From: Alphaproteobacteria bacterium
Lineage (GTDB): Bacteria > Pseudomonadota > Alphaproteobacteria > SPJN01
Direction of reading: 5' to 3'
Length of the DNA: 64,000 bases
Assembly: GCA_965227065.1 (NCBI GenBank)
Contig: CBDDFN010000009.1
Coordinates: 151,337-215,336 of the forward strand
This document shows positions 7,300 to 62,305 of the stretch, piece by piece. The notes under the pieces are model-generated. The model ran no database searches and was not told the origin of the DNA. It saw nothing but the letters and a program-made list of their open reading frames with translations. Within the stretch, counting starts at the first letter, position 1; each line of letters opens with the position of its first letter. The translations under genes and the position numbers were made by a program.

Positions 7300-7830
7300 A
7301 TGGACATCAAATCTTTGATCCGAACCATTCCTGATTTCCCCAAGCCCGGCATCCAGTTCCGCGACATCACCACCCTGTTCGGGGACGCCGAAGGCTTCCG
7401 CTATACGGTTCTTGAGATGGCGGCACAGGCACAAAATTTCGGCCGCTTTGATCTGGTGGCGGGCATTGAGGCGCGCGGCTTCATTTTGGGCGGTTCCATC
7501 GCGGCGGAGCTCAACACAGGCTTCATCCCGGTGCGCAAGAAAGGCAAACTGCCCGGCGACACGATCGCGCAAGATTATGATCTGGAATATGGCACCGACA
7601 CGATCGAGATCCACACCGGCGCGATCAAACCGGGCCAGCGCGTGCTGCTGATTGATGATCTGATCGCCACCGGCGGGACGGCCGCAGCTGCATTTCAGCT
7701 GTTGACCGAGGCGGGGGCCGAAGTGCCGCTCGCCAGCTTTGTGATTGATCTGCCCGCGCTTGGGGGCACGAAAAAGCTTGAGGCGCTGGGTCTTGCGGTC
7801 CAGACCCTGATGGAGTTTGAAGGCGATTGA
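7300..7830 (+). CDS. apt: adenine phosphoribosyltransferase
   Basis: PRTase motif VLLIDDLIATGGT and N-terminal IPDFPKPGIQFRDIT. Confidence 0.9.
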   Translation: MDIKSLIRTIPDFPKPGIQFRDITTLFGDAEGFRYTVLEMAAQAQNFGRFDLVAGIEARGFILGGSIAAELNTGFIPVRKKGKLPGDTIAQDYDLEYGTDTIEIHTGAIKPGQRVLLIDDLIATGGTAAAAFQLLTEAGAEVPLASFVIDLPALGGTKKLEALGLAVQTLMEFEGD

Positions 7831-8579
7831 TGAACCGCATACCTGAGAACAGACTGCCACCTATTCCGAGCTCCCGGACGCTGCTGGATTTCCAGATGCG
7901 AATAATCTGGGATAAAGAATTCAGAGAATATGTTTGTACCGAGGAATGGATAGAAAAAACTTCGAAGATCGCTGATGAGAATATTAGGAGGTACAAAAGA
8001 AATGTATTATGGATTGTTATTGTTGCGAGTGTAAATTTTTATGTATCATATGTTTCGCCACAAGAATTAAAAACAACTTTTGGCAATGTGATATTGTTCG
8101 AAAATATTGAAATATTATTATCATTCACTTTTTCTGTCATTTTGTATAATGCGCTGAATTTGCATTTTTCGTCAAAAACGCAATATGCCTGTGTTATGGC
8201 AGCCGCAAGTCAAATGGCAGACGATGCTGACCTAAAATACATTAATTTGGTTGGAATTTTAGGAGAGCCGAGAGCATTTCGATTGCATTCAAAGCTTGCG
8301 AATCCAAGTAAAATAGAAGAAATTTCTCGCTTATGGTCTGGTATAGTAGATTATTATTTTATTTTATTATCAATAAACTTAAGCGCTTTATTGGTCGTTA
8401 TTTCGTTTGTAAATAATATACATTTTGGTGAGTGGTGGTCCGAGAACTTTTTTTGGTCGGCGCTATACTGTTTCGTCGTTCTTTTAATAGGGTCTGTTCT
8501 TTTGGTTTACAATTTGGGCTCATGGACTCGTATTTCCGCAAATGAGAAAAACGCTGAAAATTACAAAGACACAGTATGA
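7827..8579 (+). CDS. hypothetical multi-pass membrane protein encoded on a low-GC islet
   Basis: ORF whose body (about 7900-8545) is strikingly AT-rich, roughly 30% GC against a >60% GC background. About 4 predicted TM helices and no recognisable domain. Alternative in-frame ATG at 7896. The 3' end overlaps the yraN start by 38 nt. Confidence 0.5.
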   Translation: MMNRIPENRLPPIPSSRTLLDFQMRIIWDKEFREYVCTEEWIEKTSKIADENIRRYKRNVLWIVIVASVNFYVSYVSPQELKTTFGNVILFENIEILLSFTFSVILYNALNLHFSSKTQYACVMAAASQMADDADLKYINLVGILGEPRAFRLHSKLANPSKIEEISRLWSGIVDYYFILLSINLSALLVVISFVNNIHFGEWWSENFFWSALYCFVVLLIGSVLLVYNLGSWTRISANEKNAENYKDTV

Positions 8580-8916
8580 AACAGGTCTGGACGCCGAAGA
8601 CGAAGCCGCCCGCTTTCTGAACGCTCAGGGCTTTGCCGTTCTGGACCGGCGCTGGAAATGCAAGGATGGTGAGCTTGATCTTGTCGTCGCTTCAAAGGGC
8701 CTGATTGTCTTTGTCGAGGTGAAAGCCCGGGCCGATCAATCGGCCGGTCAAGCCGCGCTCGAACGGCTGGGCGCCGATCATGCCCGCCTGTTGGCCGCAG
8801 CCGAGCAATGGATTGCCGCCCATCCTGAAGCCTGTGAGGGCCGCGACATGCGCTTTGACGTGGTGTTGATCGTGCCGGGCGAACCCGTCACCCATGTCGA
8901 GAATGCGTTTGTTTAG
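8542..8916 (+). CDS. yraN: YraN family (UPF0102) predicted endonuclease
   Basis: Conserved core GFAVLDRRWKCKDGELDLVV...VFVEVKAR...FDVVLI. The first about 15 codons lie inside the AT-rich islet. Confidence 0.75.
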   Translation: MRKTLKITKTQYETGLDAEDEAARFLNAQGFAVLDRRWKCKDGELDLVVASKGLIVFVEVKARADQSAGQAALERLGADHARLLAAAEQWIAAHPEACEGRDMRFDVVLIVPGEPVTHVENAFV

Positions 8917-9572
8917 CTGTTCGCCGCAAAAAATTCTTTCGTTCGGCCCCACGCCAGTGTGGCAGCCGCCTCGTCATAGTGATCGGGCCGGTCGGACTGG
9001 AAGCCGTGATCGGCCCCCTCATAGATATGGATGGTAATTTCGGGATGCTTGACCCGCAGCCGCTCGACATCCTCAAGCGGGATGGTGGGATCTTTTTCGC
9101 CGAAATGGCACATCACGGGGCACTGCGGTGTCTCATTCATCAGATTGATGATTAAACGGCCATAATAGGGGGCTGAGGCGGCTACGCCTGAACAGCGGCA
9201 GGCGGCAAGCCATGATACCGCGCCACCAAAGCAAAAGCCGGTGACGAAGACCGGACCCTCAAGCGCATCGATGCAGGCCTGCATGTCCAAGGCTGTCTTG
9301 TCGAAACGGCCCGCGCAGGCGGTGGCGCGGGCAATCGCGTCCTGCAATTCATCCTGCGAATAGCCGGTTTGATAGTCGCGCACCTCGCGGTCATACAGTT
9401 GCGGGGCGATGACGTCATAGCCCTCAGCGGCCCAGCGGTCGGAAATTTCTTTGATATGGTCTGTGACGCCGAAAATCTCCATCACAAGGACAATACCGCC
9501 TTTGCGCGCGCCTTCAGCCGGGGCGCGATAGGCGCCAAGCTCAAATCCGTCGCTGGTTTGAAGGGTGATCAT
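8913..9572 (-). CDS. dienelactone hydrolase family protein
   Basis: DLH-fold motifs (VLVMEIFGV...GFCFGGA...). Start set at MITLQ (ATG 9572) because it forms an ATGA overlap with the stop of the upstream hotdog gene. The track ORF extends 23 aa further. Confidence 0.75.
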   Translation of the reverse strand: MITLQTSDGFELGAYRAPAEGARKGGIVLVMEIFGVTDHIKEISDRWAAEGYDVIAPQLYDREVRDYQTGYSQDELQDAIARATACAGRFDKTALDMQACIDALEGPVFVTGFCFGGAVSWLAACRCSGVAASAPYYGRLIINLMNETPQCPVMCHFGEKDPTIPLEDVERLRVKHPEITIHIYEGADHGFQSDRPDHYDEAAATLAWGRTKEFFAANS

Positions 9573-29676: not shown

Positions 29677-30174
29677 GACGCTAGTTTTGAAGGGGAAGCG
29701 GTGATGGTGCAAGCCTTTCGGCGCAGCGGCTGAGGGCGTGACAAAATTTGTCTCCCGGGGGCAATTTTTTGCTTGACCCAACCTGTCCACGATTCCTGTG
29801 GATAAGTTTGTGGTCAAATCTGGGGGCAGGGGCCACAGCCCGCAGAAACCCTAGCCTTGGACATACTTGCCTAAATATTAATCAAAAAAATAGAGCATTG
29901 ATATTGTTGAATAATTCGCCGTCAAGACGTAAATTTCGGAAAATCCACGTTTTTGACCTCATGTCCGCCGGTGGTTTCAGTGCCGCCTTTTTCGCTGTGC
30001 ACAAACATCACCGAGCGCTGCGACAGAAGGGCTCAATCTGTCAAGGGGCGATTGAAATTTGTGCATTTTTGAAAGGAATCGCAGAAAACCGCGCCCATTC
30101 GCTGGACAGCTTGTTTAAAGCATAAACATTTCAGGCAAAATTCTGCGCTGCACTGGCGATTTCGCGCTGCAATA

Positions 30175-30579
30175 TCAGCGGCGCCGTTCGAGCGTGACGC
30201 CAACCGTTCTGGCTTCGTCAATGGCGTCTGGTTTTTCGACAGTGATGGCGGCATCCAGCACACGGGGGTCTTCAAAGCATCGCTCGGCGATCAGATCGGC
30301 CAGTGTTTCGACAAGTCCGATATGGCCGCGCGCGACGATCGCCTTCACCGCATTGACGAGGCCTTCATAGCAGACCACCGATTCAATCGTGTCGGCGATG
30401 GCGGGGGCATGGGCGTCGACGGTCAACTCAATCGAAATGCGGACCGGCTGGGCCTGGCCCTGTTCATGGGCGTGGATACCGATATGGGCCGGCAGTTCAA
30501 GCCCGCGCACAAAGACGCGGCGCGCCACGGTTTCACCGTCGCGGGCGTTCAAGGGCTGAACATTGGTCGGCTGGCTCAT
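30175..30579 (-). CDS. folB: dihydroneopterin aldolase
   Basis: FolB fold sequence (VFVRGLELPAHIGIHAHEQGQAQPVRISIELTVD). Start at MSQPTNV (ATG 30579). Confidence 0.8.
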   Translation of the reverse strand: MSQPTNVQPLNARDGETVARRVFVRGLELPAHIGIHAHEQGQAQPVRISIELTVDAHAPAIADTIESVVCYEGLVNAVKAIVARGHIGLVETLADLIAERCFEDPRVLDAAITVEKPDAIDEARTVGVTLERRR

Positions 30580-45810: not shown

Positions 45811-48303
45811 CTAGAATGTGGCCCGAAGCTGAACGGCGAAGGTTCTGGGATCGTTGGTTGTCACCCAGTGAGACCCGGTGAAGAAGGCGACGTCGGAGGA
45901 CCGTGTCTTGATGGTGCGGTCCATGACGTTGCGGACAAACAGCGAGACGTTCCACCAGCCATCAATACTGCGCAGTGACGCGCGCAGATTGACAAGATAA
46001 TAAGCATCTTGCGCATCGAACGGATCGCGGTCGGATTCAAAAATCTGCCGGGTCTGGAAATAAAGGTCTCCGCCAATCACCATTTCGATCGGCCAGTTAA
46101 ACAGGCCCGTCGTGTAGTCGGTGATGAAGGTGAACTGATTGCGCGGGTTGCCGCGCTTCTTGCCGGTCAGGTCGCAAAACCCGTCCTGTCCTGCAATACA
46201 CGGACCGTTTTCATAGCTCGTATAGAAGGCATCAAGGAAGGAGTAATTGCCGCCAATGAAGAAGCCCCAGGGCAGCACCGCGCCGCCTTCGATTTCAAGT
46301 CCCTGGCTGACAGATTCAGCAGCGTTGCGCACAATCGGTGCCAGGCCATTAAACACGAAGGTCTGAAGGTTCTTGAACTTGGTACGGAACAGGCCGAAAT
46401 TCACCCGGCCGACACCGTCAAGAAACTCGGCCTTCAAACCCAGCTCAATGGTTTTGGATTCTTCGGGCTCAAAGGCAATATCGGTTAGCGCAGCAGATGT
46501 GGATTGGGTGTTGTATCCACCGCCTTTAAAGCCGATCGCGTAGGTTGCATAGACATTGATCTCGTCAGTGGCGCGCCAGATGACCGAGAATTTGGGCGAG
46601 AAATCACTTTCCCGGCGGAACAGCTGATTGTCGCCCGTATAGTCGAAATTGTCGGCGTTCAGAACCGGCGCAAGGATGAGGCCAGGGCTTGGCACTGCGC
46701 CGAATTCATAGTTCTGGGCGAACAGATCACCGGTTTTGGTTTCAACCGCATAGCGCATGCCGACCAGCAGCGAAATCCACGGCTTGATATGCCAGGTGAC
46801 CTGGCCAAAGGCCGCGACGCTTTTGGTTTCTTGAAGCAGGCTTGTTTCGCGGGTCTCGAACACAAATCCGGCATTGGGCGTGTTGAGCAGCGTATTGAAG
46901 ATCAAGCCCAGAAGCGGATTTTGGCCGGTAATATTGTCGAGCGGTGTGCCGATCAGGCGGCCCAGATTGTCGACCTGGAATATTTGAATGTTCTGGAAGG
47001 CGTCCAGTTCGCTGCGGAACAGATAGGCGCCGCCGACATATTCAATCTCGCCCCAATCGCCAAGGAATGCATCGCCATTGACCCGGATTTCCAGTGTGGT
47101 CTGCTCATATTCATCAAGCTGGTCGAGCTGGACGAGGGGCAGTGGCGAGAAGTCGGCATCAATGCGGTTGTCGCGATCATAAATCGAATGCGCGGCAATG
47201 ACGGCAAAGGTCTGGTTGAACAACTCAAAATTGGCGCGGCCCGAAAAATCGGTCGTCGTCAGGTCGGTCATCGCCATTTCGTTCATCGAACCCTGGCGAT
47301 TGATGTCGGCTTCAAACTCATCGTCATAAAGCGGAGCGGCGACCTGCATGCCACCATCGGCCCGGCTGAGTTCGACACCGACCCCGTTGGGAACATCATA
47401 CTGGTTGTGAACCACCGTCAAAATCACGTCGGCGGTATCGGTAATGTCGAATTTCAGCTTGGCGCGGATCAGCTTTTGTTCGTTGGCACCGTCTTCGGCG
47501 TCAAAGAATGTGTTGGTGGCAAATCCGCCGCGTTCCGCCCAGCGGCCTGACACGCGCAGGGCCAGCCGGTCGTCAATGATGGGGACATTGATGGCGGCAT
47601 TGACGGAGCGGCGCTCAAAATCGCCAATCTCGCCGGTGACATCGACTTCCCATTCATAGCTGGGATTGGTGGTGTTGATGATCAGCGCCCCGGCAATCGT
47701 GTTCTTGCCAAACAGCGTGCCTTGCGGTCCGCGCAGAATTTCAACCTGTTTGACGTCCAAAAAGGCCTGGGTGAGGTAATGGACGCGGCCAGCATAAACA
47801 TCGTCGATGATCAGACCAACAGCCTGTTCAAAGCCTTCCATCTGGCCTGATCCCAGGCCGCGGATCGACACGCCATTGAACACGCCTGAGGCGTTGACCG
47901 ACAGGTTGGGGGTGTATTTGGACAGTTCGGTGAAATCCTGGATGTTCTGATCTTTCAGCGACTCGCCGGAAATGGCGGAGACGGAGATCGGGACTTCACG
48001 AATGTCCTGCTCGGTTTTCTGGGCGGTGACGATGATCTCATCAAGGCCACGCCGCTGCGCGCGCGGGGCGCCCTTGCTCATGGAGGCGGCAACATCGCCT
48101 TCAACATCGGCTGACCCGAATGTTGATTTTTGAGCCTCTTTGGTTTCACCAGTCTCGGCTGCGGGCTGGGAGGGGTCGATGGCGTCTTGCGCGGCGCTGG
48201 GCAGGGCGGTGCCTGATATCAGTAGTGACAGAGCCAGTCCGGCAACAGCGCTTTTTCGGATGCTGCCATTTTGCAGTGCAGCATTCGCTTCGTGATGCAT
48301 CAT
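45811..48303 (-). CDS. TonB-dependent receptor (paralog 3)
   Basis: Same plug motif (DEIIVTAQKTEQDIREVPISVSAISGE), with a C-terminal LRATF. 50 nt gap to paralog 2. An AT-rich promoter-like region lies upstream (48304-48510). Confidence 0.9.
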   Translation of the reverse strand: MMHHEANAALQNGSIRKSAVAGLALSLLISGTALPSAAQDAIDPSQPAAETGETKEAQKSTFGSADVEGDVAASMSKGAPRAQRRGLDEIIVTAQKTEQDIREVPISVSAISGESLKDQNIQDFTELSKYTPNLSVNASGVFNGVSIRGLGSGQMEGFEQAVGLIIDDVYAGRVHYLTQAFLDVKQVEILRGPQGTLFGKNTIAGALIINTTNPSYEWEVDVTGEIGDFERRSVNAAINVPIIDDRLALRVSGRWAERGGFATNTFFDAEDGANEQKLIRAKLKFDITDTADVILTVVHNQYDVPNGVGVELSRADGGMQVAAPLYDDEFEADINRQGSMNEMAMTDLTTTDFSGRANFELFNQTFAVIAAHSIYDRDNRIDADFSPLPLVQLDQLDEYEQTTLEIRVNGDAFLGDWGEIEYVGGAYLFRSELDAFQNIQIFQVDNLGRLIGTPLDNITGQNPLLGLIFNTLLNTPNAGFVFETRETSLLQETKSVAAFGQVTWHIKPWISLLVGMRYAVETKTGDLFAQNYEFGAVPSPGLILAPVLNADNFDYTGDNQLFRRESDFSPKFSVIWRATDEINVYATYAIGFKGGGYNTQSTSAALTDIAFEPEESKTIELGLKAEFLDGVGRVNFGLFRTKFKNLQTFVFNGLAPIVRNAAESVSQGLEIEGGAVLPWGFFIGGNYSFLDAFYTSYENGPCIAGQDGFCDLTGKKRGNPRNQFTFITDYTTGLFNWPIEMVIGGDLYFQTRQIFESDRDPFDAQDAYYLVNLRASLRSIDGWWNVSLFVRNVMDRTIKTRSSDVAFFTGSHWVTTNDPRTFAVQLRATF

Positions 48304-48512
48304 CGTGTCAGCCCCTCAACCAGCATCGATACAGTCATGTCTATCTGAAAACGGACAGTACAGAGCCGGTTTTGGATGACGCAAGTGCACAATCAGCGCA
48401 GTTGGAGTAATCACTCCAAACTTGTCCCGTATTGGTCACACCCTTGTAAAATAAAAGATAATTAAAAAAATAAACTGACAAAAATATTGGTCAATCGTTA
48501 TAAAACCATGGC

Positions 48513-48544
48513 ACAAAAAAAAGCCGGATCCCGAAGGATCCGGC
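48513..48544 (-). terminator. rho-independent terminator (minus strand)
   Basis: On the minus strand a perfect 9 bp stem GCCGGATCC-TTCG-GGATCCGGC is followed by TTTTTTTT. Confidence 0.65.
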
Positions 48545-48916
48545 GAGTTCAACAGGGAGGCTTCACGTCTGGAGAGACGTGAAAGGTCGGGTCCTAAATG
48601 GGGGGCAAGGACCCAACCAGCGTCGACCGGAGCCGACGCGGTACCATGGATCGCGTGGTGCGATGCAACATGGCACACTCTCTATCTACGCCTTATACAA
48701 AGGGGATGCAAGGGCTATTGTGCACTGCACACTTAATGGTCTCTTGAAGGAAAAGCCTGAAAAATCAGCTAATTGTTTGATTTTTCAGAACAAGTGTGGG
48801 GTCTTCCCTACAGGACTGTTCGCAAGTGCGACATTGGGGCACGTCGTTAGACATATTAAAGATAATTGTCTAATCGTCTCTCTATCGCCTTGAAAATAAA
48901 AGAGAATATTTTCAGA

Positions 48917-49893
48917 TTATTCCGCGGCCGCGCTAGACAGTTTGTCCAGCGGGTGCTCTGCAATAAATTTTTCCGCCTCAAGCGCCGCCATGCAGCCCAT
49001 GCCCGCGGCGGTCACCGCTTGGCGATAGACCTTGTCGGTCACGTCGCCGGCGGCAAAAACACCGGCAATATCGGTCGCGGTCGAATCAGGGGCCTTCTTG
49101 ATATAGCCGCTGTCATCCATGGAAACCGCACCTTTGAAGACCTCGGTCGCGGGCGCGTGGCCAATGGCGATGAACACGCCATCGGTTTTGATTTCGCTCG
49201 TCTCGCCGCTCTTGACATTTTTCAGGCGCACGCCGGTGACGCCAAGGGGATCTTCATCCCCCAAAATCTCGTCAAGCACCGAATCCCAGACAATTTCGAC
49301 CTTGTCATGGTTGAACAGCCGCTCTTGCAGGATGCGTTCGGCGCGGAATTCATCGCGCCGGTGAACCACCGTGACCTTGGAGGCAAAATTGGTCAGAAAC
49401 AGCGCTTCTTCAACCGCGGTGTTGCCGCCACCGACCACCACAACCTCTTTGCCGCGATAGAAAAAGCCGTCGCAGGTGGCGCAGGCCGACACGCCGAAGC
49501 CCTGGAACTTGTCTTCCGAGGGCAGCCCCAGCCAGCGGGCTTGAGCGCCGGTGGCGATGACAACGGTTTCGCCCCCAGTAAATATCGCCCGAATCACCCA
49601 CCGCCTTGAAGGGGCGCGAGGAGAAATCGACACTCATAATTGTGTCCTGGATAAGGGTGGTGCCGACATGCTCGGCCTGGGCCTGCATCTGTTCCATCAG
49701 CCAGGGGCCCTGGATCACATCGGCGAAGCCCGGATAGTTCTCAACATCGGTGGTGATGGTCAGTTGGCCGCCGGGTTGAATGCCGGCCACCATGATCGGA
49801 TTAAGCATGGCCCGCGCCGCATAGATCGCCGCTGTATAGCCGGCGGGGCCTGAACCAATGATCAAGACCTTGGTGCGGTGTTCGTTTGCCATG
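48917..49893 (-). pseudogene. trxB: thioredoxin-disulfide reductase with an apparent +1/-2 frameshift
   Basis: The N-terminal half ([27 protein letters not shown]...[11 protein letters not shown]) and the C-terminal half ([20 protein letters not shown]...CATCDGFFY...GHAPATEVF) are both TrxB-like but lie in different frames. They switch around 49585-49600 at ATATTTACTGGGGGCG. This is a real frameshift or a homopolymer sequencing error. Confidence 0.7.
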
Positions 49894-62231: not shown

Positions 62232-62305
62232 GGGGCCGTAGCTCAACTGGTTAGAGCCATCCGCTCATAACGGATTGGTTGCAGGTTCAAGTCCTGCCGG
62301 CCCTA
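62232..62305 (+). tRNA. tRNA-Met (anticodon CAU), elongator type, or possibly tRNA-Ile2 (lysidine)
   Basis: Manual cloverleaf: acceptor GGGGCCG/CGGCCCT, D-arm GCTC-AACTGGTTA-GAGC, anticodon arm ATCCG-CTCATAA-CGGAT, T-arm GCAGG-TTCAAGT-CCTGC, and discriminator A. CCA is not encoded. Confidence 0.8.

Follow-up and report, generated by a model that had tools for sequence, protein, structure and literature searches.

An AT-rich insertion coding for an orphan predicted membrane protein between apt and yraN in an alphaproteobacterial genome

The DNA analysed here, hereafter the window, is a stretch of 64,000 nucleotides from an Alphaproteobacteria bacterium (contig CBDDFN010000009.1, assembly GCA_965227065.1). 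We describe a short AT-rich islet that lies in this window between apt, coding for adenine phosphoribosyltransferase, and yraN, coding for a UPF0102 protein. The islet holds a single open reading frame (ORF) whose predicted product is a multi-pass membrane protein, and it is missing from related contigs, in which apt and yraN overlap directly. The neighbourhood is composed of housekeeping genes only (bc1 complex, MTAP, apt, yraN, dienelactone hydrolase (DLH), MaoC, ychF, pth and L25). The features of the junction are the following:

7300–7830, plus strand: apt, native upstream gene (Pfam PF00156), with its TGA stop at 7828–7830
7827–7830, plus strand: ancestral TTGA overlap, in which the old yraN TTG start (7827–7829) lies on the apt TGA; yraN starts there in the related contigs L081–L090
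7831–8578, plus strand: inserted DNA, 748 bp
7831–7887, plus strand: leader of the insert, 57 bp, 59.6% GC, host-like, absent from the junction of relatives
7888–8578, plus strand: AT-rich core of the insert, 691 bp, 33.9% GC, coding throughout in a single frame
7830–8579, plus strand: orphan ORF of 249 aa (P0001), with alternative starts at TTG 7827 and ATG 7896 and a TGA stop (8577–8579) that straddles the right junction
8484–8513, plus strand: sigma-70-like hexamer pair (TTAATA, 18 nt, TACAAT), a consensus match only, 29 nt upstream of the yraN ATG
8542–8916, plus strand: yraN in its present form, 124 aa, of which codons 1–12 and the first base of codon 13 are islet DNA (8542–8578)

The insertion at the apt–yraN junction

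Clustering at 90% identity groups Apt and YraN of the window with sequences from metagenome contigs, which belong to two related lineages, L081–L084 (approximately 93% nucleotide identity to the window, Apt 98%) and L085–L086 (approximately 82% nucleotide identity, Apt 93%); a third lineage, L087–L090 (Apt 80%), has an identical empty junction. In 11 metagenome contigs of these three lineages there is nothing between apt and yraN, which overlap by 4 nt (TTGA), the TTG start of a 117-aa yraN overlapping the apt TGA stop. In blastn searches and alignments, homology between the window and its relatives stops at 7830, which is the last base (A) of the apt TGA, and restarts at 8579 (AAACAGG); the 748 bp from 7831 to 8578 stand for 12 bp of junction (GCAGCGGTCACC in L081), and the remainder of the 18 kb common to L085 and the window is collinear. 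The boundaries of the insert read TTGA/TGAACC and GTATG/AAACAG, the slash marking the junction. The insert itself is composite, a leader of host-like GC being followed by the AT-rich core. No second copy of the leader was found among the fetched loci or elsewhere in the window, and none of the insert in the window or in 95 loci.

A sliding profile of 200 bp shows GC falling from about 0.60 to 0.29–0.36 between approximately 7900 and 8580, and a two-change-point likelihood fit delimits the low-GC segment to 7888–8581, with 33.7% GC against 60.3% in the flanks. This is the window-wide minimum of the 300-bp GC content, since the islet reaches 0.307, about 6.7 standard deviations below the mean of the 64 kb (0.589, standard deviation 0.042), and its composition has undergone no amelioration towards the GC of the host. 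The original prediction had placed a sharp GC drop at about 7900 and the recovery at about 8545; the low-GC islet from about 7900 was confirmed, whereas the recovery had been set some 35 bp too early, as the AT-rich DNA reaches the ORF stop at 8579. Two milder GC dips (0.43–0.44) occur elsewhere in the window, at 29776–30175 and 48201–49025. They are mostly intergenic and overlap the 5' ends of flanking ORFs, one being upstream of an ORF that resembles UvrC, the other upstream of a large ORF resembling a TonB-dependent receptor (both identified by eye from translations); they look like ordinary regulatory intergenic DNA and were rejected as comparable islets.

Because the islet is missing from the junction in three related lineages, the insertion is recent and lineage-specific and, as judged from the alignments, the occupied junction is the derived one. 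The original prediction had spoken of a compact, horizontally acquired single ORF, to be checked by aligning the junction of related genomes, in which an ancestral gene would be universally present. The alignment found the islet absent from relatives, and the claim was borne out by the deviant GC together with a junction that is empty in the three lineages. The opposite reading, of a gene that was ancestral at this site and was precisely lost in relatives, would have to accommodate three lineages (Apt 98%, 93% and 80%) that share both the compact TTGA junction and the N-terminus of the 117-aa yraN, as well as an islet that has not ameliorated; it is barely conceivable, and we regard it as effectively refuted.

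The overlapping arrangement has a limited distribution of its own. At Apt identities of about 71% (L091–L095; marine metagenome contigs, GCA_964342855.1), apt is followed by NnrU-family, panB and penicillin-amidase genes and not by yraN, and therefore the apt/yraN TTGA overlap is a trait of a narrow clade; apt–yraN synteny was not seen among 80 more distant genomes (Apt at most 66% identity), through which the source can be placed only broadly, as an alphaproteobacterium near Parvibaculum/Sneathiella-like lineages. The clade is present in databases almost solely as metagenome contigs, and the window's Apt, YraN and ORF sequences are all confined to one 367-kb contig at NCBI. A scan of metagenome DNA for the apt 3' end, made as a test for an insertion hotspot, gave no match, and a literature search on the sample accessions yielded nothing on their environment.

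The single occurrence across databases and a composition wholly unlike that of the host would also be expected of an assembly or chimeric-read artefact, or of contaminant DNA spliced into the contig. Nevertheless, the contig rejoins the same locus 12 bp further on and in the same orientation, the junctions share at most 5 nt, which is too little for a mis-join in a k-mer graph, and the reading frames of the ORF, apt and yraN fit together coherently, all of which makes an artefact extremely unlikely.

Scans of the flanks for repeats, tRNAs and genes agreed with the original prediction, which had noted no integrase, tRNA or repeats beside the islet. No integrase or recombinase is coded in the insert, which has one ORF only, or in the collinear flanking 18 kb; there is no tRNA at the insertion, the only one of the window being at 62232; direct repeats in the flanks amount to nothing beyond chance-level short matches; no terminal inverted repeats pair the ends of 7831–8578; and no Pfam transposase domain was found in the insert. 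The pentanucleotide ATGAA is present at both ends (7830–7834 and 8576–8580) and absent from the empty site of relatives, and the 12 bp of target were lost, not duplicated. As regards integrons, there is no attC-like imperfect palindrome at the 3' end, where the ORF reaches the right junction, the GTTRRRY core is absent from both boundaries, and no integron integrase was found in the window region examined. A genomic island, an insertion sequence (IS) or miniature inverted-repeat transposable element (MITE), an integron cassette and a catalogued defence family were each considered and rejected, the defining features that were looked for being absent. What the insert does have are the descriptive features of an ORFan (an ORF without relatives), namely no homologue, a deviant composition and absence from the orthologous site.

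The inserted reading frame, its product and the altered start of yraN

Depending on the start codon, the ORF codes for 250 aa (TTG 7827), 249 aa (ATG 7830) or 227 aa (ATG 7896). It stays open for 229 codons where the composition predicts 7.8% stop codons (P ~9e-9), its length was matched in none of 20,000 shuffles in any of six frames, and the remaining five frames of the islet contain 6–19 stops each; therefore the ORF is genuine coding DNA. Its GC content at third codon positions (GC3) is 0.32, against 0.65–0.72 in the neighbouring genes, in line with the AT-biased codon usage that had been predicted. Inside the main ORF, within 7986–8034, a perfect AGGAGG (7986–7991), which the main frame reads as Arg-Arg, precedes by 10 nt an ATG in another frame (8002), at which a 10-codon mini-ORF (MYYGLLLLRV) begins; the arrangement is probably fortuitous.

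Hydropathy analysis identified four putative transmembrane (TM) helices, numbered here according to the 249-aa form:

8004–8060, plus strand: predicted TM helix 1, aa 59–77 (Kyte-Doolittle, 19-residue window, 1.66)
8088–8162, plus strand: predicted TM helix 2, aa 87–111 (Kyte-Doolittle 1.96)
8355–8411, plus strand: predicted TM helix 3, aa 176–194 (Kyte-Doolittle 2.38)
8451–8507, plus strand: predicted TM helix 4, aa 208–226 (Kyte-Doolittle 2.42)

The ORF listing and the hydropathy profile are in agreement with the earlier description of a single ORF of 227–250 aa with about four TM helices and a hydrophilic N-terminus. Lysine and arginine residues are distributed unevenly (12 in the charged 58-aa N-terminus, 7 in the 62-aa central loop, 3 in the C-terminal tail, and 1 and 0 in the two short loops), and this distribution predicts a pair of helical hairpins with both termini inside. 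Following the positive-inside rule, the product would be arranged as two helical hairpins in the inner membrane, with the N-terminus, the central loop and the C-terminus exposed to the cytoplasm. AlphaFold2 single-sequence models of the 249-aa and 227-aa forms are all-helical and unreliable (mean predicted local distance difference test score, pLDDT, 43–45). An internal duplication, in which each half would consist of a soluble segment plus a TM hairpin, was considered and rejected (BLASTP of half against half, E=16).

We searched for relatives of the predicted protein in several ways. The ORF matches only itself among 5.8 billion clusters (word-indexed search) and among 1.84 billion representatives (exhaustive phmmer/HMMER), and there was no relative among about 15 billion proteins. 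In comparisons of the ORF and of its two halves with profiles (Pfam, NCBIfam, PHROGs, PADLOC), only chance-level matches on TM segments were obtained: the sole Pfam match is CPP1-like, on a TM hairpin (12.6–14.8 bits against a cutoff of 28.4), the best PHROGs match has E=0.1 over 17 residues, no family of PADLOC-DB v2 matched at E<=10, and the Pfam membrane-effector and holin families (SLATT/DUF4231, holins, CAAX-type Abi) gave no match at or near the gathering threshold. A PDB sequence search with the ORF had no match; neither did the ORF or its DNA match phage and plasmid collections (tblastn, blastn), IMG/VR and JGI metagenome contigs were without match in scans with back-translated peptides, and viral contigs contain no exact DNA match to the leader or the core. 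An RNA element in the leader or in the islet was also considered and rejected, as Rfam returned nothing below E=4.7. By all these searches, the islet protein is an orphan without known relatives, and the statement that it contains no recognisable domain was upheld, profile, sequence and PDB searches having given nothing beyond chance.

The original prediction had likened the islet to single-protein abortive-infection, phage-exclusion or toxin-like membrane effectors. Small multi-pass proteins with exclusion or immunity functions include lambda RexB, T4 Imm, P22 Sie and the bacteriocin immunity proteins, and the islet protein would resemble them in its size class and in its predicted all-helical multi-pass membrane architecture. 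However, it shares no sequence or profile similarity with them, lacks a partner of the RexA type and is not close to a prophage or bacteriocin locus. That the ORF was acquired to protect the host, as a membrane effector acting alone in abortive infection, superinfection exclusion or immunity or in the manner of a toxin, would be consistent with a small multi-pass membrane protein coded by foreign, AT-rich and strain-specific DNA, although this evidence is circumstantial, and with boundaries trimmed to the coding sequence, which could reflect selection. Against it stand the lack of any match to PADLOC, PHROGs or Pfam even under permissive thresholds, of any phage, plasmid or viral-contig relative, and of a partner gene or defence-island context, as well as a predicted coupling to a constitutive housekeeping operon, which is unlike the tight regulation of toxic effectors and speaks against a product of strong toxicity. 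Profiles, homologues and neighbourhood thus gave no positive evidence for the resemblance, and we regard such a function as improbable.

At the left junction, the old yraN TTG persists as the first codon in frame with the inserted ORF (TTG ATG AAC ...), and a Shine-Dalgarno-like AAGG is retained at 7820–7823, upstream of TTG 7827. The inserted ORF seems, from this arrangement, to have appropriated both the site at which translation of yraN began and the overlap of this site with the apt stop. On the right, the ORF stop TGA at 8577–8579 is composed of TG from the insert and A from the host: the net gain of 736 nt shifts the frame by +1 relative to yraN, and therefore the ORF stops at once on the junction TGA.

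It was the start of yraN that was displaced. The gene lost its old start and its first six codons (MSSGHQ), which are replaced by the islet-derived MRKTLKITKTQY and an E codon to give the predicted new N-terminus MRKTLKITKTQYE, and its first 13 codons are overlapped by the ORF (8542–8579). The junction alignments thereby corroborate that the 3' end of the ORF overlaps the yraN start and that the islet supplies the yraN 5' end, as had been proposed. Only the pre-domain N-terminus of YraN was replaced; the UPF0102 domain is intact (PF02021, E=1e-20, 74.3 bits, residues 18–110, profile positions 1–80 of 80), and the native part of the gene (8579–8915) has 15 synonymous and 4 non-synonymous codon differences relative to L081.

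No Shine-Dalgarno motif was found before the yraN ATG at 8542, and the hexamer pair at 8484–8513 is a possible islet-born promoter for this gene. Six of the seven sigma-70-like hexamer pairs identified between 6300 and 9700, all of them consensus matches only, are inside the islet, four being antisense to the ORF (8006–8175 on the minus strand; 8080–8108 and 8484–8513 on the plus strand). Such a pattern, a 'promoter island', is typical of AT-rich foreign DNA and would probably be a target for silencing of the MucR or H-NS type; MucR-type silencers were proposed to act in GC-rich alphaproteobacteria (PMC7710501). No terminator-like site was identified on the plus strand of the islet, and therefore read-through from apt is possible.

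Besides a complete gene, the frame relations just described could have been left by a piece from the interior of a larger foreign coding sequence, captured in frame and joined with 57 bp of filler, in which case the ORF would be a chimeric by-product without an evolved function. The frame is indeed open over the whole AT-rich core, with no non-coding flank on the 5' or the 3' side, the ancestral yraN TTG has been joined to it in frame, its stop codon combines two bases of the insert (TG) with one of the host (A), and ATG 7896 has no Shine-Dalgarno motif of its own, only a GGA at -8 to -10. On the other hand, no more than about 8 nt separate this ATG from the GC change-point, and at the opposite boundary the frame closes precisely; the predicted architecture, in which two TM hairpins lie between a charged N-terminal domain and a hydrophilic tail, looks self-contained; and relatives would be expected if the 227 aa were part of a larger family, and there are none. 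We consider a fragment unlikely, although it is the most serious of the competing explanations. Since the insert is composite, the fusion to the yraN start is in frame and the stop was made by the junction, a complete gene and a fragment are indistinguishable from one sequence.

Origin of the insert and its relation to known systems

We hypothesize that the islet was captured as foreign DNA through illegitimate recombination, recently and in this lineage only, and that its product is a tolerated inner-membrane protein, either a passenger or a minor accessory, and we consider this account probable. Illegitimate recombination or end-joining is suggested because the insert is composite, the deletion at the target is small, and there is neither a clear duplication nor a recombinase; nothing points to a site-specific mechanism or to one mediated by a transposase. 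A break at the apt/yraN overlap would have been repaired with captured DNA, the pieces being a host-like stretch of 57 bp, which may be filler, and 691 bp of foreign coding DNA with low GC from an unsampled donor. The ORF would then be read from the ancestral yraN initiation site (AAGG at 7820–7823, in-frame TTG 7827 or ATG 7830) and, because this site overlaps the apt stop, it would be co-transcribed and translationally coupled with the MTAP–apt operon. Its product would enter the inner membrane as two hairpins, while YraN would survive through an improvised start, ATG 8542 in the islet, possibly transcribed from the islet-born promoter at 8484–8513. Given the coupling to a constitutive operon and the purely housekeeping neighbourhood, a tolerated passenger or a minor accessory membrane protein seems likelier than an effector dedicated to defence or toxicity.

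Several points weigh against this account. The donor was not found in the databases searched, so that microhomology at the junctions is uncheckable, and the right junction is ambiguous by at most 1–3 A residues, with the 5-nt ATGAA at both ends. The AT-rich segment matches the start-to-stop frame within approximately 10 nt at each end, which is unexpected for random breakpoints and hints that selection trimmed the insert to a functional coding sequence, or that the mechanism was itself precise with respect to coding sequences. The ORF is known from one sequence only and offers no test of conservation or of the ratio of non-synonymous to synonymous substitution rates (dN/dS), and expression of the ORF, the insertion of its product into the membrane and the start of YraN are likewise deduced. 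The coincidence of the AT-rich DNA with the frame fits a trimmed complete coding sequence and an in-frame internal fragment equally.

Taken further, the same coincidence could be read as an undescribed 'ORF-only' mode of gene transfer that targets overlapping stop/start junctions, or the ORF as the founder of a selected, new, stand-alone family of four-helix membrane effectors. If the first were true, the cargo would be expressed at once by translational coupling; if the second were true, the islet would code for a phage-exclusion or immunity protein kept by selection, its flanks having been trimmed. We consider both very unlikely.

Descriptively, the islet belongs with horizontally acquired orphan genes, an already known class. 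Daubin and Ochman reportedly proposed, in 2004, that many ORFans derive from phage or other unsampled mobile DNA. The islet ORF resembles the ORFans of enterobacteria in that it has no homologue, is AT-richer than its host, is short, is restricted to one lineage and lies between core genes; it differs from them in the extreme contrast of GC (34% vs 60%), in junctions that are resolved to the base against empty sites, and in being fused to a resident start codon without expression signals of its own. A study on E. coli/Shigella describes AT-rich, short and strain-specific ORFans as a class (PMC3514957).

A preprint describes ectopic DNA as integrating at microhomologies (bioRxiv 10.1101/2023.11.22.568220). 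As in illegitimate recombination of the kind termed short-patch double illegitimate recombination, or SPDIR, the islet replaces a few resident bases, has no clear target-site duplication, no terminal repeats and no recombinase gene, and is composite, one short segment having another origin. However, SPDIR patches are typically tens of bases long, whereas the insert has 748 bp, and its microhomologies are not verifiable without the donor.

Two further comparisons concern single genes that are added between others. Phage 'morons', as described by Hendrix and colleagues, are said to be extra genes of deviant GC that lie between two genes adjacent in related genomes. The islet is likewise a single extra gene of deviant composition between otherwise adjacent genes and absent in relatives, but morons sit in prophages and usually have their own promoter and terminator, whereas the islet has no terminator and lies in a housekeeping operon of the chromosome, where no phage genes are near. 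Integron cassettes share with it a promoterless single ORF and almost no non-coding DNA, and cassette ORFs are frequently ORFans; unlike a cassette, the islet has no attC-like 3' repeat or GTTRRRY core.

The present evidence reveals no new biological system. The locus provides a base-resolved example of how an operon may gain an orphan gene without mobile-element machinery, in which the newcomer would take the resident ribosome-binding site and start codon and the displaced yraN would improvise an N-terminus and a start from foreign DNA. As such, it may be useful for the study of illegitimate recombination and of the 'domestication' of AT-rich DNA in GC-rich alphaproteobacteria.

A second indel downstream of yraN

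A second junction, of two bases, flanks yraN on its other side:

8916–8917, no strand assigned: junction at which L081–L086 have a 152-bp structured intergenic element and the last DLH codons

In these relatives the 152-bp element lies between the convergent yraN and DLH genes (L081:3307–3458, also in L082–L084; L085/L086:10881–11032). Between lineages its identity reaches 95%, against only about 82% for the flanking genes, and it is predicted to form a multi-hairpin fold (-66 kcal/mol, z=-4.5), with no match in Rfam. The first hairpin of the element, TCATCCCGGACTTGATCCGGGATC, recurs in Methyloligella and Sphingomonas loci, which suggests a widespread palindromic repeat or a small-RNA-like element. 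The window is entirely without the 152-bp element, and therefore yraN is bracketed by two indels. In the window, the yraN stop TAG (8914–8916) overlaps the stop of the convergent DLH gene (8913–8915, minus strand), and the DLH C-terminus, which reads ...EFFAANS instead of the ...EFFAANTQQ of L081, was altered because of the 152-bp deletion.

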